Source: Schmidtea polychroa
Taxonomy: Eukaryota
Reading direction: 5' to 3'
DNA: 64,000 bases
Assembly (NCBI GenBank): GCA_044892525.1
Contig: CM097885.1
Coordinates: 166,470,001-166,534,000 of the forward strand
The notes under the pieces were generated by a model. That model saw only the letters and a list, made by a program, of their open reading frames with translations, ran no database searches and was not told where the DNA came from. Positions 521 to 57,871 of the stretch are shown here, in pieces; position 1 is the stretch's first letter; each line of letters starts with the position of its first letter. The position numbers and the translations under genes are program-made.

Positions 521-3339
521 TAGCGTGGGCTTCTTAAGCGATTCATCGACAGAATTAATTTCATTGACCCATGACTAAATTAAATATAAAAAATATAGCA
601 AATAACCGTTACATTCAACTTGAAAATCACTCATTATTTCTTCTTTAATCGAAGAATCTAATTGATTAATTGAAAGCATTTCAGTGGCTTTTCTTAAAAC
701 TCGGCTAAATATAAATTATTTATAGAATTTACAAACATTGTTATACCTATCAGGCGATAACTTTTGCAATCGCTTTTCACAAAAATCTTCTAAGTGAGGA
801 TATCTACCTTCTTCACCCGATCTGTTATTGTAATTTGAATTTTAAAACTAGTCAACAAAAGACATTAATGAATACTTAAGAGTTAAATAGATTTTTTCTA
901 GTTCCAACACATTGGTACACTTTTCAATATGGTCATAATCCAAATAACTGATTGGAATCTTAAACGTTTTAGAAAGACTGTCACAAGATTCCATCTGTTC
1001 GTTGCTATGAATACTTTTAAAACAAATGCGACTTTAAATTATAATAATCTAACTTATTGATGAATTAGAGTGAAAGAACAAATAATTAAATTAGAATTAA
1101 AGTGTAATTAAATTACATATAATTTTCATATTAATATTTGTAAGATCAAAATAATATAAAAGGTGTATGATAATTCGGCGCAACCGTTATCAAATACAAA
1201 CTTGATAAAGGCTGAGTCGATATATCGTGTACCTAATATATTATTTTGGTCTTACAAATTTTAATATGAAAATCATTAAATTAAAAATAGATTAAAGGTG
1301 AATACAAACGATAAATACATATATAATATATTATTTATAAATATATGAAAAATTGTCAAAGTAAAAATTAACATCAAAATTGACATACTTGAAAAAATAA
1401 TTTATATTAACAATAATTATTAAACAACAAAATATTTAAAATTTTTATGAAATAATTTTCAAAGACAAACACCCTTTTTCTATTGAAAATATCCTGAGAC
1501 CTTAAATTACCATGCTTTTTATTTGTTGGGCTAGAACTGATTTCTAGACCCAAACTTCTAATTGTGGCTGCAATGTGTAGGTACACAACATGCAAAAAGC
1601 AAAAAGTATAGTCAAATATTAAAAATACACCAAATAAACAATATTAACTAAAGAAGAAAGCAACAAAAAATAAACAAAGAAATTAAATAAAATTATACAA
1701 AAGCAAGAAGTTATGCAAAATAGAACTCAAAAATAACCAAATAAACACAGAGTTACAAAAAACAGACTCGAATAACTTAAAAAACGGTAAAAACAGTAAA
1801 AATTTCCAGAAAACCCAAAACATTCCATAAAAATGGCGAGGACCATCACAAAAGCCAGTTAGAACAATAAAAGTTAGAAAAATAACTAAACTAGTAATAA
1901 AAATAAAAATTCGAAAAAAGAAATTCATAAAACATCAGTTAAAATAAAAATAAAATTAAAATTAACATGGAATGTTCTGGAACCGTTCCAAATCCATCAT
2001 GGACGGCAAATTAACAAAAAAATAATTAAAAAATATAAAAATAAAAACAAAAATTATGGCATAAAAATTGCCATTAAAAATAGAAAAATCGCAAAATAGA
2101 AAATTCTGGAATAAAAAAGAATTCGAGTTTGTTTTAATGCATCAATACATACACGTGTACAAAATAGGTATATATACTGACACGTTTCAGCCACAAATCA
2201 TCATTATTTTATGCCAAAATTTTTTTTTGTCAACAAAATATCGATAATGAGTATTATTGCTTCATTTTATTGATTATTATTTTATTTTATTATTATGTAT
2301 CTATTGTTGACCCATCTATGTTAAACGATTAAAATGATTTATATTTTGATTTTGCTTAATTAATTTTTTTTGTGTGATGTACGAATGTTCAACGGCGTAC
2401 TGGTATTCCTGCGTCGTTGTTCAGTCCTGCATCCAATTTAGTAAAAATCTCATAGGGCATGTAAACCTGCATTATCTATATTATATTAATCCATATTATA
2501 CGGCTCTTTTTGTTCGGGTCAGCCGGAGGTCGAACTACTTCATGGTCCTGCCATGGAGTAAGGTCGAGGAAACCCTCCGCCTGACTCTTTGTATTTATCT
2601 AAGGTCAACCGTAAATGGTTGACTCAGCACACAACACTAAGGTTTGTGGAAGTGGTCACAGGGGGGCCATGGAAGCAATATTCTTCCCGACCTTTTACGT
2701 AACACATATTTAAATTCAACATTTAAAATCAGTACAACAAAAATACACTAAGGTCCTTAATTGAGTAGAACTCATACCTAAACTCACACAACTATACAAA
2801 TCACACGAATGTAGCTGGTTGATCAATAATAATATTTTTGGTACACTTGGACATATGCCGAATTGGGTTTGGTAATAGAATCTCATGGTAATTGGAATAT
2901 TAGAAACGGTAAAATTATTCGGCCTATGTCTAAGTAGAGCTTAAATCTGGATAGACCTGTGAATTAATCATCGACTTAATGGATCCAATGTAAGGGAAAA
3001 GGTTATAAATCTAAAAGAATTTCGAGTCTAAGTTCTCACTGTAAAATATTCATAAAGGTATAAATAATTAGTTATAACTTTTATCAATAATTATAATAGG
3101 TTAGAGATAATTATATTGACCTTAAAAAGTAAAACGTTGACGGATAAATCCCGATTAGGAGTTATAGAGTCAGAGTATAAAATTCTGTTTTATGACTAAG
3201 TCTATGTGAATGTGGAACTTCGGGAAATATAACTCATAGACAGTTACCAATAAACCTGAAAAATGTTATAAGACGATGTAGATCACATAAAAGTAATCTC
3301 ATAAAAGGTCATATAAAGCTGACTAAAGGATCGTAAATC

Positions 3340-4100
3340 GCAAGGTACCAAAACTATAAATTATAAAACGTAAGACTATAAGTAATAATCTAAAATCGTA
3401 GGTTACTGAACATAAAACTATAAACTATAAATTAAAAACCTAAATTTCTAAATTGTAGACTATAGAAGTGTAAAGCATAATTACAAAGTCTAAAATATCG
3501 AATATAATATTATAAGTTATAAAACTATAAATTAAAAACCTAAATTTCTAAATTGTAGACTATAAAAGTGTAAAGCATAATTATAAAGTCTAAAATATCG
3601 AATATAATATTATAAATCATAAACTATATAACTATGGATTAAAAATCTAAATTCCTAAATTGTAGATTATAAAAGGGTAAATCATAACTACAAAGTCTGA
3701 AATGTAAGATCGTAAAATGTTGAATATAAAATTATAACCTAAAAACTATATAACCATAAAGTAAAAATCGAAATTTCTAAAGGGTAGACTATAACTGTAT
3801 AAATCACAACCATCAAGTCTAAAATATAACATCCTAAGATATTGAATATAAAACTATAAACCATATAACCATAAATTAAGAATCCACCTTCCTAAATGGT
3901 AGACTATGAAACTATAAATCTGAAAATATAAAATTAGGAAATAGAAAATATAAAATTGTAAAATGTTAAATAAAAAAGTCATAAATTATAAAGCGGATAA
4001 CGAGAACTTATAAAGTATGAATTACTAAACTGTAAGGTATAAAATTGGAAATTGTAGAACGAAAACCTGCAAAGTGCAAAATGTAACATTCTAACTAGAA
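3340..4100 (+). repeat. Degenerate tandem array of about 100-125 bp units built from TATAAA-like subunits, inside the 5.25-kb element
   Basis: aaactataaattaaaaacctaaatttctaaattgtagactata recurs at about 3422 and 3522, with more diverged units at about 3630, 3755 and 3868. Confidence 0.8.
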
Positions 4101-4149
4101 TATGAATCTCTAAATTGTGAAAGACAAAATACGAATGGTAAAATATAAA

Positions 4150-4310
4150 GTTATATTATCACTATTATTATCATTATTATTATTATTATTGTTGTTATTA
4201 TCGTTGTCATTGTTGTTGTTATTATTATTGTTCTGATTACTATGCTTATTGTTCTCATTGTTGTTATTCTCATTATTATTATTATTATTACTATTATTAT
4301 TATTACCACT
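4150..4310. repeat. (TAT/TTG)n microsatellite
   Basis: Direct reading; it produces the spurious poly-Asn ORF 4110-4358 (-). Confidence 0.85.
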
Positions 4311-5259
4311 ACGATCACTTGTTATCCTTGTTACCACCATTTTTACTGTTATGATCATAATTAGTATTACTTACTAGGGAAGTAAAAATCAATTATTGAT
4401 TTTTTCTGATTCCCATATCTAGATTCGGAGTCAATTCTGTTGCCCAATAAAAACGTTCCTAACCTAAAAAATCTATATTTAGCAACACCCCCCCCCCCAG
4501 AGAAACATCAAGGAAAAATTCAAGACGGGGATACGACCATCAAGAGTTTCCAGGAGACGGTGAGAATGACTCCGGCGAACCATGCAAATGAATAAATAAG
4601 CCATAATTCGCAGAGATTTACTTATGTACAGAATACAAATATTCCCGGAAAATTTCCAAATTCTACGAGTGATAAATTGCGGGTCCAAATCAAATATTGG
4701 GCATGAAATGACATTCCCTGGGAAGGATTATGGGGAGACTGCTCCAAGCTAACCTATTCCCTCTTACTCGATCGAGGTTCATAATAATATCACCTAAAAA
4801 TTAAGGAATTAGGAAAATTAAATAAATTACTTGCTTGTAGATCGAACCACTCATAACGAGCACAACCGAAGGAAAGGTAAGCAGACGAAGAGCTTAGTTC
4901 ATTGCTAGTACCTGTCGCCCCAGCGTGCCCGAATTTAGTGGCCTAAAAATGACGATCTAAAAACCTCCCATTTTATTAAAATATAAATTAAAATTCATAA
5001 ATAGTAATTAAAATTACCACTTAGTGGTAAACAAAATTTTTGAATGTAAATGATTAATTTAAACAAACGAATTTTGACGAATTTTTTGGATAAAGTGAGA
5101 GATCTTATTCTACTGTTCCTAGGATTATAGATGCTAGTTTTAAAATAAATGGTTTTTCTTTAACTTTGAATTTTTAAAAGAGAAACGGGATCAACAAAAT
5201 CCCGTGTTTAACCTCGTAATACAATCTATATAAAGTGGCCTGATTGTTACTTTGTAGAA

Positions 5260-5625
5260 ATGTCCTACTCTGACAGCAGCAGCATCGAAGAAGACGATCG
5301 GCAGACGATCACCCGACTCCGTACCCGGTACATTTGGTACCACATCCATCGGTGGAGTCAGGGACGGGACCTGAATTGTGCAGATCGAGTGATCCGGCAA
5401 GGCCCCGAAGCAGATGCCCCGGCGTGGGTGAAGACGGAGCCGGAGAACAACCGGTTGCAGGAATCCCGCGATCAAGCGGCCTGGGACGTAGAAGCCGCTC
5501 AGATCCGGCTTAAGAAGATAGACTTGCAGATCAGGGCAGAAAGGGAGGGGGTGCCCCTAGAAGAGCTAAATGAAGCCGAGGTACCCTTGAGAAAGAGAGG
5601 GAGGCCCCGCAAGTATCAATTGTGA
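5260..5625 (+). CDS. Orphan 121-aa protein with C-terminal AT-hook (ORF A of the TG...CA element)
   Basis: Intact GC-rich ORF in AT-rich DNA, ending LRKRGRPRKYQL (AT-hook core RGRP). Acceptor-like tttgtag lies 2 nt before the ATG. Confidence 0.6.
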   Translation: MSYSDSSSIEEDDRQTITRLRTRYIWYHIHRWSQGRDLNCADRVIRQGPEADAPAWVKTEPENNRLQESRDQAAWDVEAAQIRLKKIDLQIRAEREGVPLEELNEAEVPLRKRGRPRKYQL

Positions 5626-5903
5626 TTAGGAGCCGACATTTGACTTACTTCAATAACTTCTTATCTAGTGGGTGTGGCTTAATTAATGATCAATTTTGAC
5701 TAATGTTATTGTTAAATAATAATCTCTTATTCATTGGGTGTCTTAATTAACAATTACAATTGACTGGGGTTTATTATCAAATGAAGTGTTTTCTTTTTAA
5801 ATTGAGTTGTAAGTAACAAGTATAACAATGTCCTAGCAACGCATTATTAGTATTGATTAATCAGTAAACTCTTTTAGCATGTGTAAAATTAATAACACCC
5901 TTT

Positions 5904-6383
5904 ATGTTTTCAGTGTATAAGTTAATGGAAAACTTGCGGAAGGATCGGGAGCAGGCCCAGCAACAAGCAGACGAACTCCGGACCCGAGTAGATAAGCTAA
6001 AAGGGAAATGTCGGGAGTTCGAGGGGACCTGGTTTAGCCCCGAGGCGATGAAAAGGAAAGCAACCCAGATTCTCCAGCTGCAGACACAAGCCACCCAGGA
6101 TCAAATGGAGATTCGCGCCCTAAAATTGCAGGTGCGGGCGCTCGAAACCGAACGGAATGAGCGGTTTGTGCAGGAATCCACAGCAAGGCAAATCCGGCCG
6201 CTGACCGTCGAGCTGGCAGCGATATATCCTCCGGCCGCTGAAAGCAAACCTAAACGAAAACGGCTAGGACGAAACATCCGTGAAAAATTAAAGAAGGCCA
6301 GGCTGGCCGAGCACGAAATGCAAGTGGACTCATCGCAAACGTCTACGACGGGACTAATTGGTCCCACTAATAAGCCGAGTTGA
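5904..6383 (+). CDS. Orphan coiled-coil protein with WFSP motif and basic NLS-like tail (ORF B)
   Basis: Intact GC-rich ORF containing LKGKCREFEGTWFSPEAMKRKATQILQL and KPKRKR. It is homologous by eye to 53462-54082. Acceptor ttttcag at 5907-5913; likely ATG at 5925. Confidence 0.65.
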   Translation: MFSVYKLMENLRKDREQAQQQADELRTRVDKLKGKCREFEGTWFSPEAMKRKATQILQLQTQATQDQMEIRALKLQVRALETERNERFVQESTARQIRPLTVELAAIYPPAAESKPKRKRLGRNIREKLKKARLAEHEMQVDSSQTSTTGLIGPTNKPS

Positions 6384-6916
6384 ACTGTTATTCCGTTTTT
6401 TGCAGTGTGTTTTATATATTTTTAGTATCAAAATAATATTTTTTATTGTTGTTACAATAATACATATTTTGTAGAGTTAAAATAATGTCTGGTATATTTA
6501 TGATTGCCTGGGAAATGAGAGTTTGTGCGTAAGGTTGGGAAAACAATTTTGATAAGGGACCTGAGGAAATCGGACACAAACCTTCTAACGGTAGTCCGTG
6601 AACCCATAGAGTACTCGACAATTATAGTGCCTTGATGCGCTCACTTTTTGCGAGTACTCAACCCCTTGGTACAGTACCAACGTTGATTACTCAACGGGTA
6701 CCAAGTGGAAACACATGTTGTATTTTGGGTTACGCTGGTAACAGCACTTTAACATCCGACCACCAGTAACCCACCATATTGAAGACCATCTTTTTCTATT
6801 GAAAATGTCATGAGACCTTAAATTACCATGCTTTTTTAATGATAATCGATTTTGTATTGAAAATTATTGGGCTTTTTTCTATAGGGCCTATCTATTTGTA
6901 TTGAAAAAAAACTTGT

Positions 6917-8668: not shown

Positions 8669-9215
8669 TTATAAACTAGCTTCAATAGTGTAAGTCTTTT
8701 TAACTGGCTTTTTATTCAATCTTTGAATAAAATTTCCTTTAGAGGTTGATGCTATAACTTTTTCTTTTTTAGTTTCTGATTTACCAGCTTCTTCTAATTC
8801 AAACTTGATTTCTTTTTGATGAGAACTAATTGCATTAAACAATTGCACAACACCCTTAGTAGCTAAACTAGCAAAGTATCTTTCTCGTTTTTTTTCTTGA
8901 ATAAAACCTTCATCTAAATCTATATCAAACTTATTCATTGATATTGAACCGTTAATTACTGAACGCCTACGCTTTCGACCACCAACAGCAAACAATGGTT
9001 TTTTATATGACTTAAAAATGTTGTATTATTTAAGTAAAATATTAAAAACTCACTTCGTTAAAAATCTTTGGATTTAGAGATTTACTGATTTGTTCATCAT
9101 TTGTATTTTCTGGGCTTTCCTCTGAAATGAGGCACATAATATGACCAGGTTTTCCATCTTTGCCTTTTAAATTAAGCAATTTTTGAAAAACTCGTTTTAA
9201 AGATTCATTTGACAT
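8669..9215 (-). CDS. RRP15: RRP15-like ribosome biogenesis protein (2 exons)
   Basis: Exon1 9215-9054 (54 codons, MSNESLKRVF...), 43-bp GT-AG intron 9053-9011, exon2 9010-8669 in frame. Contains the Rrp15 motif ERYFASLATKGVVQLFNAISSHQK. Confidence 0.85.
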
Positions 9216-9722
9216 TTTCAGAAATACCTAATATTTAAACAAGTTTTTGCCAATAACGTTTTTCAAATGTTTCACCAAATTGTAAAACTAAAATATTTAT
9301 TTAGTCATTTAAGACACATAAATTAATTTATACTTTTACAAAGTAATTTATGTCTTAAATTTTTAAAAAATTAAAAATTTCGATATTTGTTAAATAACGA
9401 GTTTCAAATAATTTAGTTTATAATTAATTTATCTCATTTTTAGTGGCGAAAAGTAAGAAATAGTCTATAATTTGATCGAATGAAATATATAACATAGTGT
9501 TTTAATATTTAATTACTATCACTTACCAATAGTTACTTATACAAACTCTTCAAATTTTCTTCAAAATGAAACTTCGAAAATTAAATAATGTAGTTTAGTA
9601 AACGTTATAGTAAAAATAATAATGTTTCAAAAATAAGATTATGTTTAAATTAAAATATTATAAATTTTAAAATATTAATTTAATAATGCTAGTGTAAGTA
9701 ATTTTTAATATTTGTAGTGATA

Positions 9723-48900: not shown

Positions 48901-51900
48901 TATTTTAGACGCCCATGTTCTAGGAGTACTGTTTTATTGGATTTTGAACATTAATAAGTCATCTTTTTGCTCTCCATTCCACTTGAATTCCATTGACAAT
49001 GTTAAATTTGTAATAAAAACATTAAAAATCAATAATACTTTTCAACAGAAATACAGGCTTTATTGTGTTTTATATATTTTTTATTTTATTGAAGGGAACT
49101 TTTATTCAAAATAAATTTCTTTAAAGATTAAAAAAAATTTTTGTAATGGTTTTTTGACATATTAAATAGAGACTAAAATTCTATTTTTAAAGCGCTCTTT
49201 ACTAGAGGTGCCCCGATGCCTTGCATCCACCGCTTCCAGCTATACAACGGTATACAACGGTATACCCAGTATACAACGGGTTTCGTGTAATAATGTCATC
49301 TATAATTGTAGTTAGTATACAGTGCGCGCTGTTTCACTTGGAGCTAACCAATATATCATTGTGCTGAAATTTCACAAAATTATCATATTACATAAAAACT
49401 GGAAAAGTAAGGGGAATATATTCAATAATTAGTGAAAAAATTGGTTTGTCCCAAGTGGAATGGAGACCAAAAAGATGACTTATTAATTTTTCAAATTTGC
49501 GTTTTAGAAAAAGATGAAACTATAAATTTCTGAATTTATTGCAATTCCAAGTTAAAATAATTTCAAATTTAAATTAATTTTTATCATTTTATTTCCTAGA
49601 TATTTACATTTTTACATCAGCTTGAGAATAATGATTGTCATATTATTTCCCAAAATTTCTTATATTTGTAAATTATAGACCGAACTAAATTTTTGACTAT
49701 TCCTAATAGCCATCCTAATTCCCATCATTTACGATCTTTTTTGCAAACCATCTTTGCAGACCAAACTAGAGTCCTCGAAATAAGATTCAAAATTTTCATC
49801 CACCAAATTTTTTTCAAATAATAATTATGATGTTTTGTCCTGAAATTTCAAGATAACGTACTTTGATGAAATGATGAAAGAAATTGAAAATTTATATGCA
49901 TTTATATTATGTTTTGTGTTTAATTCATTTTCTACCACTTTTTTATTTCTATTTTAATTCATGGATTGTGTTCCTATAATATAAGCTTATTGATTTTTTC
50001 ATATATTATGTGACTTTTATCCAGGCGTATAAATAATGTAGGAAAGTTGTTGTGACTGCNNNNNNNNNNNNNNNNNNNNNNNNNNNNNNNNNNNNNNNNN
50101 NNNNNNNNNNNNNNNNNNNNNNNNNNNNNNNNNNNNNNNNNNNNNNNNNNNNNNNNNNNNNNNNNNNNNNNNNNNNNNNNNNNNNNNNNNNNNNNNNNNN
50201 NNNNNNNNNNNNNNNNNNNNNNNNNNNNNNNNNNNNNNNNNNNNNNNNNNNNNNNNNNNNNNNNNNNNNNNNNNNNNNNNNNNNNNNNNNNNNNNNNNNN
50301 NNNNNNNNNNNNNNNNNNNNNNNNNNNNNGTCAATAAAACATTATTTATATTTAACATTGGATGTTTACACACGCACCAACAATGTGCCACTGGATATAA
50401 CTATTAATAATTTAATCGATATAATCTTACCTTTTTTCAAATTTGGAACCTGAGAATCATTAAAATTAAAAGTTTCACTGTTTTCAGACTTCCTCAACGA
50501 AAATCGAAGTTTTTTCGATAAAAAAGGTATTTTTGAATTTCCTAAAGATTTGTTAAGATTTTTTTGATTACTCATGGCATGAGTATGAGCCCAAAAACGT
50601 GAATATTGTTTTGTTACAGATAAAGTAGAATAGAAAAAGGAAAGTGAGGTTAAACTTGAGGCAAATAGAGAAAAGTATATCATTGAGAATACGAGAACAC
50701 ACCATTTGGATTCACCAATTCTGAAATTTAAAATACAAAATTATTTAACTATATAAAACCTTAATTCATCTCGCACAAATAATAATTGTTTAATAAGTCT
50801 CTAAATAATTAATATTTTAATTAAAATTATATAGGAATTAAGCAAAACTAAATTTAATCAAGCGTGTTGGAAATTATTATTTCCGATCTAGAATGTTAAA
50901 AAATAAAGCATGCGTTCTTTAACATGGCCTCCTTAATACTTCTGATGAATTTTTGGAACATTAAATATATAAAAGACTATATTCAATAAAGATCGATTAC
51001 TCGAAGTTACGAAAATTAGAATAAAATAATAAAATCAGTAAAATCATTCAATAAACGAGTAAAGAAAATAAATCCTGTACAATAAAAAGGGAGTGAATCA
51101 TCCAAGTGTGGAAAATAAATAATAAAAAGAGAAAATAACAAAAATAAGAAAGTAATTAGAACCAGAATATAGTAAAAACACGAATGCTAACAAATAAACG
51201 AGACAAATACACCACCATAAAACAAGCAGAAGAAAATAATTATGTAAAATAAAAATAAATAACAGGAGATTAAAAAAAATAAACAAGGAAATAAAATCTA
51301 ACATAAAAATTATAAATAAAAATGTGAAAAAAGTAAAAAACAGCGAATTACAAGCAGAACATCCAACAGAAATTAACAAAAATAAGAAAAAATATATAAA
51401 TCAAATGACTGAATAAATTAATAAAATAAAACAAATAAATAATCCAAGAAAAAACAGTTAAAAGTACCAAAAATTGAAAAAACATGGAAACACACACAAG
51501 CTAAATCCTGATTGGACGGAAAATTATATAAAAGGTAGACATTTGGATGATTCCCTTAACTTCTAAAAAATTCGTACAGGTAAAAAATTTTAAAATTATA
51601 TTGTAAACTTCTAAAAAATTCGTACAGGACGACTCGAGAACATTTTCAGAACTCATATTATGGAAAGCTATCAACAATTCGATAAATCTTTAGCAGGAAC
51701 TAATTTCAATCGATCTAAAAAATCTATTACTAAGAACCAATTTACGCAACTCCGAGAGAGCCACTGAGACTTTATTTGACAACAGATATAAAGAAGAAAA
51801 GTAAAAATTTGTATTTATTATCATTACAGTGGTCATAATTGTATATAATTTGTTATAACCTAATATTATATTAATCCAAGTGCTTGAAATTTTTCCCTTC

Positions 51901-54900
51901 ACGAATCCAGCGTCGATATCGCTTGGATGTCTGCGCGTGATCCCCGGGATGCCACGAAACGAAATTGATTATGCAAAGTGATTGAATGAAGAATCCAGAT
52001 GAGATTAACTGGTATCGCGAAAATCGCAACGAATGCTCGAGAATTCGATTTACCCAATGAAGGAAATGTAGTACTAAATGATATGTAGATGTGTTGAGTA
52101 TAATTGAGACTGAGGTGATCACATGTAGACAACAAGGGATATGGCCGCTGGGTAAGCTTTTTTATAACTTTGATAATTCGTATAGATTTATGTTAATATA
52201 TATTTGAACATTTTTATTGTTATGAGATGGGTTGACCCGTTTGTCACGGTCACCTGGGATAGTCGGTATTCGTACCGGTGGTCGTCAGGTATACCGTGAT
52301 AAGTGGCGAGACCAAGAGAGTTCGGACGAAAAAATAAGCGAAACTAAGGTCTGGTATCACCTTCGAGTGTTGGCAAACCGAGCGCATAAATCCATATAGA
52401 ATAGCGTGACAAACCGGATGTATCGAAATCAGAATACCTTCATGTCAGGATGCGTTAATAAGAATTTCCAAGTTCATACTCCATTTCAAAATTTCGATTA
52501 ATTGTTAACAAAATTCTCTGGCAATGATTTAGGACATTTCACGTCCTCCAGCCCACGATTTAACTCTCATTTCCTACATCATTTCTTGTCACATGCACCT
52601 ACATAGGTTTACTGATTCTTCTAATATTTGATCGTTCTATTGCACGAGAGCAAAGTTCGTCTAATTTCGACAAGTCTTAATCATAAATTCTACGATTGTT
52701 AAATTGCATACATATCGGAAAATTTCCCGACATTTCATCGTTTATCCTGTCATCTAAGAACCGTTCGCCCCGTTTGAATTTGTATATCATCCATCGTAAA
52801 TGAGTTGAACAGAGTTGAAGTCAATTTTCAGTAAACATCCTGCTAGTTGATAATATGCTCTCCGAAATTGTTTATTGTAAGTAACATCCGGTAATCACAA
52901 ATAGGCGAATTCACAGAATTTCTAATAGAACAGACCGGAACAGTGCATTGATATTAGACGATATATACAAATCTGCGGAAACCGTAGGTGAAACTTCCAA
53001 AAGTCTAACTCTTATTTATGATCAGCGACATAAAGATAAACAATCATTTAAAATGTTTACAATTTTCCTAGATTTTTCAAGTAATGAGGCATAATGTATC
53101 TTATCACATGGTTAATAAAAAGTATAAACCCGGTTGTAATATAATGAAAACGAGAGATGATTGAGATAAAATACATTCCTTCGGGTTGTCTGAATTAATT
53201 AACTAATATACTATAGGTTTTTCGATCCACCACACGCACCTGACGGGTTTGGCTTTTAGTTTTACACAATTTTATTGTCAAATTCACAATAGTAATTTTA
53301 TAATTTCTGACTAAAAATTATATTTCCAAAATTATTAATAACTCGTTCACTATGATTTGATCAAGTCCGGCCCATAGTAGACCCAATACCCATGATAAAT
53401 ATGAGTAATAAAGTAATAATAAAGTAATGAGTACCGTGAACGGGCTCGATAGTAACAAACATTGTTTCTCTCATTTTCAGTAATGTATTTATCCAATTCA
53501 GCCATGTCAGAACCAAACTTACCCCCGCGTGGACTGAAACCGTGTTTTTCATGTTCAGATAAAAATGCGGATATTAAAAAACTTCATAATCATATCGGGG
53601 TTCTTAAGAAACGAATCGAGCTCTTAGAGTATACGTGGTTCTCCCCGCCACAGATGAAAGAAGAAAAAATGAAAGTATTGCGATTGGAGCACTGTCGAGA
53701 AAGTCTCCTGGAGGAAAGCCGCTGCCAGCGGTTAACAATCAAGGCCCAATCGGAGGCCCTTCATCAAGTTTATACGGACGCAGAGCTTCATCGCCGAGTA
53801 AAGGAATACCCGATAAAGAACGGGGTGAATGTCTTTCCTATCCACCATTGTGCCGAGGAAATAAACGTACAAGTGTCGTCAAGTTGTATGGGGCATGGTC
53901 CGGAGTTGCCTCGAATAATCGAACCGGTATTAACTGGCGGGTCAAGTAATCTCCCCGCTTCTACCGTCGCTCGACCGGACTCACTTCCTGTCATTTCTTC
54001 AGGCTCTAAAGAAAATACCACCAATCCGCCAAAGAAACGAAAGCGGCCATCGAGAGCCGAACGTACATTAAAAAGGAGATAAGAAATGAAGGCATTAGAC
54101 GCTTCATTATTCGCCGCCCAACCCGCGACAAAACTCAACACTTTCCATGTGGTTTCTTCGTCAACACAAGTCAAACCGGAGTCAATAGTAAATCGACACT
54201 TCAAAAACTTTCTCTCCATTAATATACGAAGACCTACATCCTTCAATAGTTTCTTGGTCGCGTGTCCAATTTCTGATTTCTTAAAAGTTGAACTGTTTTG
54301 TAATTTGTGTACATAATAATAAAAGTTATTCTTAATTATTTCAACGATAAATTGCTCGAATATTTACTGGTGTTGATTGAGAATGTAGGTATGATTTGAC
54401 CATTGTTATGAAATTGTGAAATATGAATGCCGTCTAATTGGACCAGAGACGTAGATGATTTTTAAGGGGTAAAACCTTCTATCGGCACCCAGGAATCCGC
54501 ACTGTGAATATTGTGGAGAGTAGTCTTAACATCAAGGCTCACCTGTCCACAGGTTTCCCCTGCGTATACAGTTCCAACATGAACCATCTTAATGGGTATA
54601 CGTATGGGAGTCAATTCGTAAATCATAATGGGTGCTTAGGGAAATAATCTGAGCATACAAACATCTCCCATCCTAAGTACCCAGCACGATCTAGAATGTT
54701 AAAAAAATAAAGCATGCGTTCTTTAACATGGCCTCCTTAATACTTCTGATGAATTTTTGGAATATTAAATATATAAAAGACTATATTCAATTAAAGACTA
54801 TATTTCGTAGGTTTAAAGTGTTATAATGGCCCGAAAGATTAAGCACCCCTTTTCTATTGTATAACATTTGCTTCAATGAATAAAGGTCGGAACTGAACAG

Positions 54901-57871
54901 GTAATAATTACCTGTTAGAAATTTTCTGAAACATTACAAGCATATGTGAATATATTTCACTTTTTACCACACACTGAGAAATAAACTATTCTTTATAAAG
55001 TTTGTTTAATCGAACAGGTTGATAATCATCATGTTCTTAAGAAATAAAAAACTTTAACATCTAAAGAAACCTAATTGGATATAGATTCGATTATAGCAAT
55101 TGCAAAATAAATTAATATGGAAACATATCAAATCTTAAGTATCATGTTGTCGGTTACTAAGACATTTAAAAAATCTATTCTATAAAATAGAAAATTGGTC
55201 ATAGGGTTTGCTCTTCAAATCGAATATTTCAAATCAGTATAAAACCAGTGTAGATTTGTTCAAAATGAAAATAAAAGATATTATTTAATATTTTAATTAT
55301 TTTAATATTTTAATATTTTAATATTATTTAATATTTTATTTAATATTTTAATATTTAATACTATTTAATATTTTCTATAATATCGGTACACGGATAATAA
55401 TCTAAGGTCGCCATCGGTACATACCTGACTAAAAATATATGATTATATTTTGGTATTCTATTTTAGATTTCAATGCATTCGGTTCTATCCATACCCATCC
55501 AAATGAAAAATGAGCACATAATTTTGAGTTAATTGTGCATTGGTTTAATTTCCTTACAATTAATAAAAATTGTCTTGTAAACATAAATTCTTTATAAAAT
55601 CGATTTTTACATAATTACTGGAATATAGATATTTGTGAATCAAACCCGATTCCCAATACTGTATAAGTGAAAGAGATATCACTATATAACTTTGAATGAA
55701 CATTTTCACAAAATAAACATTATTTAGCAAATATTACAGTGAGTTATAATTAATTCTTCCAATAGTAATATAAAATAAATTAAACATAAATAGAAAGTTT
55801 ATAATTTCCATTTATTTATTTGTGGAAATTAGTCATTGTAAGCTTTAATTATATTCTAGGGATTTGATTAGTCACCATTATAATTGTTTCTCGAAATAAT
55901 AATATTAGATAATCTCCATTGTTTTGTATGGTGTGGCAATGAACACCAGTAATGGACTATTAAGCTATGATTAATTTACCTGGTGGTGACTAAAAATGAT
56001 TTGAAATACATTGAATAAAAAATATTATGTAATTAAATTTCTATAATACAGGGTTTTTCAATTGAAATCAGATTTCTTTCAAATGAATTCAGAATTTTTT
56101 CAAATGAAATCAGAATTTTTTCAAATGAAATCAGAATTTTTTCAAATGAAATCAGAATTTTTTCAAATGAAATCAGAATTTTTTCAATTGAAGTCAGAAT
56201 TTCTTTAATAGAAATCAGAACTGTTTTAAATTGAATTCAGAATTTTTATGGGTAATAAAATATTATATACACTTTAAATGAAATCATGATAGAGTAAAAA
56301 TTGGTAGTTAAAACTTTTATTCAGAATTCTTCTCTTCTTACCACCTTTATGCAAACCTTCTCGTGTCGTTGAAAAATCCGATACAATCCTCCGTGGTTAT
56401 CGAATTGTGTCCCATTTCAATAGCGTTTTTCAACTCGATTGCATTTAGAACGTTAGCCGATTTGACAATTGATTTCCATTTCGAGAAACACTCTTCAATC
56501 GGATTTAATTGCGGCGAATAAGGTGGTAAAAAGCGTAACGTAAATCCAGAATTGTACCTATCGATATTCCTTTCGATCGTAGATTTCCTATAAATTGGGA
56601 GACAAAATTTGTAAACTTCTCTGCATTGTATCCACCTTCTATAACTTCAAAATTCAAAATCTACATTTTGCTGATTGCTGCGCACACTGAATAGTTTTTA
56701 CTTCGTATACTTCTCACTTCTTTGTGAGCAGGCGACCCTACTTCGCTTCGTCCATATCCCAATCTCATCGAGCAATTGAAACCGCTTTCATCAAGGAAAA
56801 AGACATGGTCCTCGTTTAATGCCAAATATTCATTGGCATACTCATACCTGCGCTCAATAGCTTCCGCAGTGTTGCGGGCAGCGGGAATTAAGGCTACTCG
56901 TTTAAAAGAGAAATTAAAGTCTTTGATTGACCTATGAATTGTCGCCAACGATACGTTAACATTCATAGACTCACTCAAACTTCTTTTCATACCTCTCAAC
57001 GGAGTAGAACAATCATCGGAAATTTTTTCTTTTAGAAAAACTAAATGCTCTTCGCTCAATTTTTTGGACTTGCACCCTTTATCTTACATTTCATCAATCC
57101 TTCCTGTCGTCTTGTAAATGCTAATAATACTATAAACAGTTTTATAGTTCATAACGAGATCTGCAGCAATTTTTTTTACGCTTTGGCCGGAATCAAATTT
57201 GATACATATAAGTTTTCTCGCAGCATTGCTCAATTGTGATTTTTTTGTTGGAGGTGTCTTATGGTTCATTGATTTTGAAAAATATTAATATTTTATGGAT
57301 ATTATATATACATATTTGAATTTGATTTCGTTTAAAACAGTTCTGATTTCATTTGAAAAAAATTCTGATTTCATTTGAAAAAATTCTGATTTCATTTGAA
57401 AAAATTCTGATTTCATTTGAAAAAATTCTGAATTCATTTGAAAAAAATCTGATTTCAATTGAAAAACCCTGTATTATTGAATTTTATAAAATTTTAAGTA
57501 GGAAAATTTGAATTATTAATAATAATAATAATAATAAAACAAAAAAATGATAATTTAAGCCTTTTGCTGCAAATAATGTATTTAATGAAAAAATTTTCGA
57601 CTACAAGATAGCCCTTGTCAATCTCTTGGAATTTAGCAATGTTCTTCCCCAAAATACCTTTTAACCTTTCTTTTATTTCCTCTCTTAATTCTCATTGGTT
57701 GTAAATATAATGAATTTTTTTGTTAAAAACTTTTAAAATTTTTATTTTTAATTTATTATATTTTTTTTTTAAAAAATAATAAAATAAAAAAAATATAATA
57801 AATTAAAAATAAAAATTTTACTATCATTTTATTGTTTTAAATAATAAATGCTGCTATCAAGAAATCATCAT

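Follow-up and report, generated by a model that had tools for sequence, protein, structure and literature searches.

Retroviruses export their unspliced RNA either by means of an RNA element or with a Rev-like protein. Retroviral genes that overlap the LTR, such as MMTV sag, HIV nef and foamy virus bel/tas, have their coding sequence duplicated in both LTRs and are read from spliced RNA. Rev-like proteins typically combine a coiled coil with an arginine-rich motif (PMC5568270, accessible in part), and in Cer1 of C. elegans the protein CERV is needed to export unspliced genomic RNA (PMC10309623, accessible in part). Among giant planarian gypsy-like elements, the domain set of Burro is given in the accessible part of PMC6431247. 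In this study, we have analyzed a stretch of 64 kb of DNA (the window) and found that one of its ORFs, ORF B, is together with its homologues an accessory gene lying inside the LTRs of Burro-type elements, with at least three families represented here and relatives elsewhere. Burro itself is already known, and genes within its LTRs appear to be undescribed, judging by literature listings and abstracts, among which we found no description; the original Burro paper may already draw the ORFs.

LTR genes and their host elements

An earlier note on this DNA had singled out three WFxP peptides, all of which are at the places claimed (WFSP at 6030 on the plus strand, WFSP at 53636 on the plus strand and WFRP at 14729 on the minus strand). 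Its suggestion of an element-encoded accessory protein is supported, but it had missed the location of the gene inside LTRs of Burro-type elements, its predicted nature as a spliced exon and the origin of the copies in different LTR families. Its count of three copies has to be replaced: the window contains two solo LTRs and one decayed remnant, which represent three abundant LTR families (B, C and D), each with about 150 or more genome matches. The features are the following (acceptors are predicted).

1520..1523, no strand: left 4-bp TSD, TATT, identical to the four letters at 6777-6780
1524..6776, plus: family B solo LTR of a Burro-type giant Gypsy element, 5,253 bp, TG...CA ends; matches both LTRs of elements with gag, env and pol between them, and its ends are common to many copies
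2388..2424, plus: conserved RNA hairpin with modest covariation (z -2.8; pairing kept in 5 of 7 changed cells; 15 copies)
2516..2588, plus: conserved long inverted repeat, without covariation support (z -4.5; 4 of 33 changed cells pair)
3407..4305, no strand: AT-rich variable tandem repeats (units of 100-122 nt) and ATT microsatellite within the LTR
5255..5257, plus: splice acceptor YAG, 2 nt 5' of the ORF A start (in 36 of the 37 distinct loci whose start could be located)
5260..5625, plus: ORF A, 121 aa, with acidic N-terminus, helical core and C-terminal AT-hook (about 5590-5619)
5911..5913, plus: acceptor of the ORF B exon (YAG then TG, phase 1; 40 of 45 distinct loci)
5914..6383, plus: ORF B exon, encoding a coiled coil, the TWxxP break (6030-6041), a second helix, a short linker and a basic helix (about 6246-6302)
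6609..6659, plus: conserved RNA hairpin close to the LTR 3' end (paired in 432 of 432 cells; pairing kept in 23 of 23 changed cells; 24 copies)
6777..6780, no strand: right TSD, TATT
14440..14850, minus: decayed TWxxP gene remnant of the older third family D, with stops and a frameshift; ends approximate
50991..54686, plus: solo LTR from a second Burro family (C), truncated on the 5' side; left boundary approximate, TSD not shown
53499-53501, plus: acceptor CAG of the family C gene
53504..54082, plus: family C gene with CxxC, coiled coil, TWFSP at 53636 and basic helix, ended early by a stop

The interval 1524-6776 has the marks of a solo LTR, namely TG...CA ends and a TSD, with PBS and internal region absent. 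Among 36 family B loci, both LTR ends were found in 23, and a recognisable end was missing from the stretch in the other 13; the two-ended loci divide into 16 with an exact 4-bp TSD, one with a one-mismatch TSD, four with a PBS next to the LTR and two with neither, the PBS of these elements being, we presume, tRNA-Pro-like. ORF B has at least 150 genome matches (150 of 150 scored, at 82-100% identity, with 6554 first-look candidates), as does ORF A (150 of 150 scored), and the ORF B acceptor with its first codons has 192 exact genome matches against 0 for the control. The AT-hook of ORF A is matched by Pfam AT_hook at E 0.009, under its cut-off. At least eight ORF A copies (query residues 4-105) stand in tandem, a few kb apart, on one genome contig (C2:173744656-173778693). 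Blocks of the family B LTR have discordant relationships over the whole length, which suggests frequent recombination between family B subfamilies; as this LTR is a mosaic throughout, block-distance correlation in family B gave no location for the R boundary. An Rfam search returned two matches, both at chance level. Right-flank DNA is duplicated on the left of the family B solo LTR (1473-1520 and 6790-6836, 47 bp at 96%), and about 110 bp of right flank is likewise duplicated to the left of the family C LTR (50883-50991 and 54686-54796, 111 bp at 97%).

Family C relatives are present in both LTRs of a 30.7-kb element, and the ORF at 53.5 kb has at least 150 genome matches (150 of 150 scored, 54-100% identity). 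One family C LTR (locus L061, 5636-7120, minus strand) also has several antisense ORFs of 62-123 aa. Limited evidence places the family D gene in an LTR as well: at one locus (L120) there is U5 similarity of 73% over 107 nt (E 2e-6), and three other loci share its downstream DNA. Used as a DNA query, the third copy matched mostly the neighboring mariner remnant.

Matches to ORF B and to the family C gene are often paired, 26-40 kb apart. Three pairs were retrieved, and in these the ORFs fall inside long direct repeats that bracket 26-28 kb of coding DNA. The repeats of region A span 4,229 bp and are 99.98% identical, and those of region C span about 5.4 kb. Element length is 30.7 kb where the LTRs are 4.2 kb, and 38.7 kb where they are 5.4 kb. 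Pfam recognises Retrotrans_gag, zf-CCHC (region A), Monjiviricetes_fusion, RVP, RVT_1, RT_RNaseH and rve; the mononegavirus-type, env-like fusion domain stands between gag and pol, followed by the order PR-RT-RH-IN, and the cargo comprises MATH, TRAF and Ank (region A), BIR, RING and TRAF (region B) and MATH (region C). By this domain set, the host elements of ORF B are Burro-type giant Gypsy elements, and on these grounds we take the DNA to come from a triclad planarian. They resemble Burro/GYPSM1 as presented in the accessible part of PMC6431247 in exceeding 30 kb, in the CCHC Gag, the env-like fusion domain between gag and pol and the PR-RT-RH-IN order, and in their ankyrin, MATH/TRAF, BIR and accessory ORFs, whereas LTR-internal genes and a splicing programme are unmentioned in that part of its text. 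Pfam at E<=0.01 found no BCL2-like, SUMO-like or dUTPase-like domain in the scanned ORFs; PMC6431247, by its accessible text, used HHpred. In both Burro families a RING-finger ORF with its own acceptor lies between the 5' LTR and gag (L061:9462-9941; L065:9565-9999), and region B (L066-L070) contains a second copy of the gag-pol region, inverted and nested.

Around these LTRs, the window contains a host RRP15-like exon (Pfam Rrp15p; 8669-9025, minus strand) about 1.9 kb from the solo LTR, and a tubulin-tyrosine-ligase-like host gene (TTL matches; 9702-24708, plus strand) within which the third TWxxP copy and a mariner remnant lie antisense. The latter is a decayed mariner-type transposase (Transposase_1; 13400-14416) with many relatives in the genome. 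A Tc1/IS630-type transposon at 56034-57486 has 130-nt TIRs made of 21-nt repeats, and hAT-like transposase fragments were noticed by eye at 27901-29397 (plus strand), the scanned piece having no Pfam match.

Homology, anatomy and selection of the TWxxP proteins

The possibility that WFxP recurs by chance in low-complexity coiled coils, or that the LTR sequence is neutral, had to be considered, given that the bare motif is weak and barely enriched (four found in the window against 1.4 expected, the fourth, at 49442, having no profile support) and that the third copy is weak when taken singly. The profiles argue otherwise. ORF B and the 53.5-kb ORF match by tblastn at E 3e-4, profiles built from real copies of the two families find each other at iE 2e-4 and 2e-5, and profile-profile alignment by hhalign gives 92% and E 5.5e-7. 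As a control for coiled-coil similarity we used 1000 heptad-block shuffles, none of which reaches the real B-C score: the B profile scores a median of 20.2 bits on 31 C members against a shuffle maximum of 16.0, and the C profile scores 21.1 bits on 32 B members against 19.6. The significant profile alignment that the earlier note had proposed as a check was thus obtained between B and C, and its homology of three sequences holds for these two. The third copy (about 14730), by contrast, is non-significant when tested singly (iE 0.62) and is joined through family D, for which 148 of 150 scored candidates match at E<=1 and 4 of 15 loci bridge to ORF B copies (E 3e-8 to 4e-5, 29-40% identity). 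A homology of the third copy to ORF A was rejected at -0.1 bits. There are zero blastn matches between the B and C LTRs.

Several details of the earlier description needed correction. ORF B exists, but the ATG at 5904 from which it had been drawn lies upstream of the conserved acceptor (CAG, 5911-5913) and is missing in several subfamilies; from the ATG at 5925 the protein has 152 aa. The second ORF, given as 53462-54082, is likewise present, but it starts at 53504 and ends at a premature stop at 54080, relatives having about 250-260 aa. WFxP does persist, but only W and P are invariant in distant relatives, and (G/E/A)TWxxP describes the motif better. The basic stretch, supposed to be a terminal tail, is not terminal, and in the third copy it is in a different frame. 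The common layout begins with a helix and the TWxxP break; a second helix, in which E-x-R is conserved, is followed by a hydrophobic-Pro motif, and a variable linker leads to the basic helix. In family C the core (pairwise identity 0.84-0.85) and the basic helix (0.78) are better conserved than the linker before the latter (0.22). Oligomerisation of the protein by coiled coil is plausible, the evidence for the helix being its heptad pattern and generic coiled-coil matches.

The absence of a recognised Pfam family stands, since Pfam, PDB and Atlas yield no family that explains the protein: the PDB search found generic coiled coils only (E>=0.3) and Atlas gave zero matches at >=0.9. A gag or SMC-like domain, raised earlier as a possible refutation, has no match in Pfam or PDB. 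Word-indexed protein searches with ORF B, ORF A and alignment A1 had no matches. When 1.84 billion proteins were searched by profile, 12 matched (E 2e-14 to 3e-4); in 9 of these the domain is fused to an unrelated Pfam domain, different each time, and 9 of the 10 looked up are singletons. In one of them (P0002), the host part is 74-92% identical to a gene of this genome, and the LTR domain is 29-46% identical to sequences elsewhere. Such relatives have the look of gene models in which, in a related flatworm, a host gene has been fused with an LTR exon. The basic helix of the relatives is rich in arginine, and one of the 12 has a match to Pfam REV that may be compositional (E 0.0013, 19.1 bits against a cut-off of 22).

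Selection was estimated by pairwise Nei-Gojobori dN/dS on real genomic copies. For ORF B the ratio is 0.10 (32 copies, 496 pairs; dN 0.066 against dS 0.775 in the most distant bin). The copies were top protein matches, which biases dN downward, but ORF A, with 0.22 (29 copies), was not selected on. Family C has 0.12 overall and 0.07 in the N-terminal half (117 and 114 of 465 pairs unsaturated, 348 of the 465 being left out as saturated). Shifted frames give 1.0-2.9, with 1.0-1.9 for the sense shifts of whole ORFs; the antisense frame with the same third positions has 0.14-0.35, each time above the coding frame. Stop codons interrupt 8 of 32 copies of B, 2 of 29 of A and 16 of 31 of C, which is what post-insertion decay would lead one to expect. 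Judged by these substitution rates, the LTR gene is shown to be maintained by purifying selection, and the past selection suspected earlier is borne out by the dN/dS of about 0.1. Together with the shuffle controls, these ratios refute a chance motif or neutral LTR sequence, to which the matching LTR position in two families and the family D bridges are also opposed, and we give that reading virtually no weight. The LTRs almost certainly encode a functional gene.

Predicted splicing and expression

Our predictions of splicing, of the start site and of the poly(A) site all derive from conservation. A YAG lies exactly 2 nt 5' of the start in 36 of 37 ORF A loci and in 21 of 25 family C loci, while the DNA further upstream of these acceptors varies among subfamilies. 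In ORF B, TG and three codons separate the YAG from the ATG at 5925 (40 of 45 loci). The codons still read Y-K-L in 16 of 17 copies, any changes being confined to third positions, family D has the YAG-TG one codon nearer at 5 of 15 loci, and Met 5925 is replaced by Leu in P0004, an outside orthologue (46% over 94 aa); taken together, these observations indicate that the ORF B exon is probably translated from its first bases. Among the internal accessory ORFs, an AG lies within 0-3 nt of the first ATG in 16 of 17 cases against 0.29-0.30 of all ATGs (P below 1e-5), the 17 being hand-picked and including non-independent orthologous ORFs of two families. A candidate donor matching the U1 consensus (AAA|GTRAGT) is present after the PBS in five of six B leaders, about 235-240 nt past the 5' LTR, and in the single C leader inspected, where it lies 299 nt past the 5' LTR.

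Based on this pattern, spliced expression of the accessory genes is very likely, and the layout suggests a splicing programme resembling that of complex retroviruses. A single leader donor just past the PBS would be joined to many acceptors to make the accessory mRNAs; those of the LTR genes would come from the 3' LTR and would be the most fully spliced. A donor exon ending in A, joined to the B exon opening with TG, would create a start codon by splicing, and for this reason we favor reading from the 3' LTR, which we hold to be probable, over a promoter within the LTR. The B leader is rich in upstream ATGs, which we counted against this lead reading. A search for processed copies returned one match, which is a mutated acceptor, and hence none was found; in the one internally deleted element inspected, the junctions do not join the candidate donor to an acceptor.

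The other arrangement, for which we see a lesser though appreciable chance, would have a promoter inside the LTR (near 2470-2520) and a donor in the conserved block, so that every solo LTR would be a self-contained cassette. The block at 2500-2700 has TATA-like DNA upstream, the long inverted repeat and donor-like GT sites, and a variable, intron-like stretch follows it, all of which would suit such a unit. Nevertheless, GTRAGT is absent upstream of ORF A in the LTR of the window, and the donor-like sites end in C or G, which leaves the conserved TG unexplained as a split start codon. An AATAAA lies 129-151 nt past the stop in eight family C copies, but the same signal follows many internal ORFs and so is not decisive.

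Function and comparison with known regulators

In the function that we propose, the protein would oligomerise by its coiled coil and use the basic helix to bind nucleic acid of the element itself, and would thus be an early nuclear regulator; in the fashion of Rev or CERV, it might allow intron-containing genomic RNA to escape splicing and nuclear retention. With some ten acceptors and one donor, a 30-kb unspliced RNA that keeps the LTR introns would still have to be exported and packaged. The protein is small, basic, helical and conserved across families, and it has the predicted position of a most-spliced mRNA; for these reasons we rank a regulator of the element's own expression first, before an antagonist of silencing and then a helper of the particle or of integration. 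That it regulates the element's own RNA or promoter is, on balance, what we expect. A specifically Rev- or CERV-like role is less likely than not, and for want of an export signal we do not place ORF B in the Rev family: ORF B and ORF A have neither a strict nor a loose match to export-signal patterns, family C has a loose match only, and one of four outside relatives has a strict one. The lysine-rich basic helix of ORF B also counts against it.

Within the same overall expectation of a regulator, and overlapping with the Rev- or CERV-like reading, the protein could be a transcriptional transactivator of the Tas or Tat/Tax kind, a dimeric basic-helix protein acting on the LTR or on a nascent hairpin, with the AT-hook protein ORF A helping on the AT-rich LTR. 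Viral transactivator genes are positioned at the 3' end, the LTR has conserved hairpins, ORF A combines its AT-hook with an acidic N-terminus, and a conserved acidic-hydrophobic C-terminal tail in family C is echoed by acidic-aromatic tails in distant relatives. This tail is missing from ORF B and P0004, however, family C LTRs have no ORF A homologue, and searches gave zero matches to DNA-binding families, so that we consider a transactivator rather doubtful. An antagonist of host silencing or defense, the example given in the earlier note, working as a coiled-coil decoy whose short motifs recruit the SUMO or ubiquitin machinery, seems less likely again. It would suit the RING, TRAF/MATH and BIR genes on these elements, the targeting of Burro by PIWI (according to the accessible part of PMC8532177) and, by regular expression only, SIM-like strings in C and two distant relatives and PPxY in three, but both motifs are absent from ORF B, and a dN/dS of 0.1 would suit a core element function more than an arms race. 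A regulator of the element's own RNA or transcription therefore fits the anatomy somewhat better. Lastly, the NLS-like basic helix in B and C, the AT-hook in ORF A and the need of 30-40 kb of DNA to enter the nucleus are compatible with a role in nuclear import or chromatin tethering of the pre-integration complex, or with a structural coiled coil of the particle; with the gene predicted to be a separate spliced unit and any link to Gag or integrase hypothetical, we judge this improbable.

Burro is the largest known family of LTR elements and a PIWI target in planarian tissues, and the literature that we saw, the accessible part of PMC6431247 included, gives no account of the way in which a 30-kb RNA and a dozen cargo genes are expressed from it. 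A selected, conserved LTR gene offers a concrete target for RNAi and a testable model of an early regulator with a splicing programme, and its location in the LTR would account for the TWxxP domain being fused to unrelated host proteins in public gene models. A more ambitious synthesis, which we advance as unlikely in its entirety, would view Burro elements as complex retroviruses of the Gypsy lineage, in which a leader donor feeds about ten accessory mRNAs, an independently evolved, LTR-encoded Rev-like switch (the TWxxP coiled coil and basic helix) has an AT-hook partner in one family, and hundreds of intact solo LTRs are ready exons with acceptor and ORF.

Compared with known systems, the LTR genes recall MMTV sag, HIV nef and foamy virus bel/tas in having their coding sequence in both LTRs and in the predicted use of spliced RNA, but there is no homology, and here two genes with their own acceptors lie in a Gypsy LTR of 4-6 kb. 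With Rev, Rex, Rem and Rec, as characterized in the accessible part of PMC5568270, ORF B shares its small size and, by prediction, a helical oligomerisation region with a basic or arginine-rich helix and a spliced mRNA. Unlike these proteins, ORF B has no export-signal match, the Pfam REV match of its relative is under the cut-off, the basic helix lies well beyond the helical hairpin, and the LTR hairpins are only a putative response element. CERV, according to the accessible part of PMC10309623, is a protein of 517 aa that contains M and G globular domains and has exons in common with GAG, whereas ORF B, which we liken to it by description only, has about 155 aa and is located in the LTR. Both nevertheless belong to Gypsy-type elements, and CERV is made from a spliced mRNA and has a leucine zipper and a basic NLS; if ORF B were Rev-like, Gypsy-type elements would have a second dedicated export factor besides CERV.
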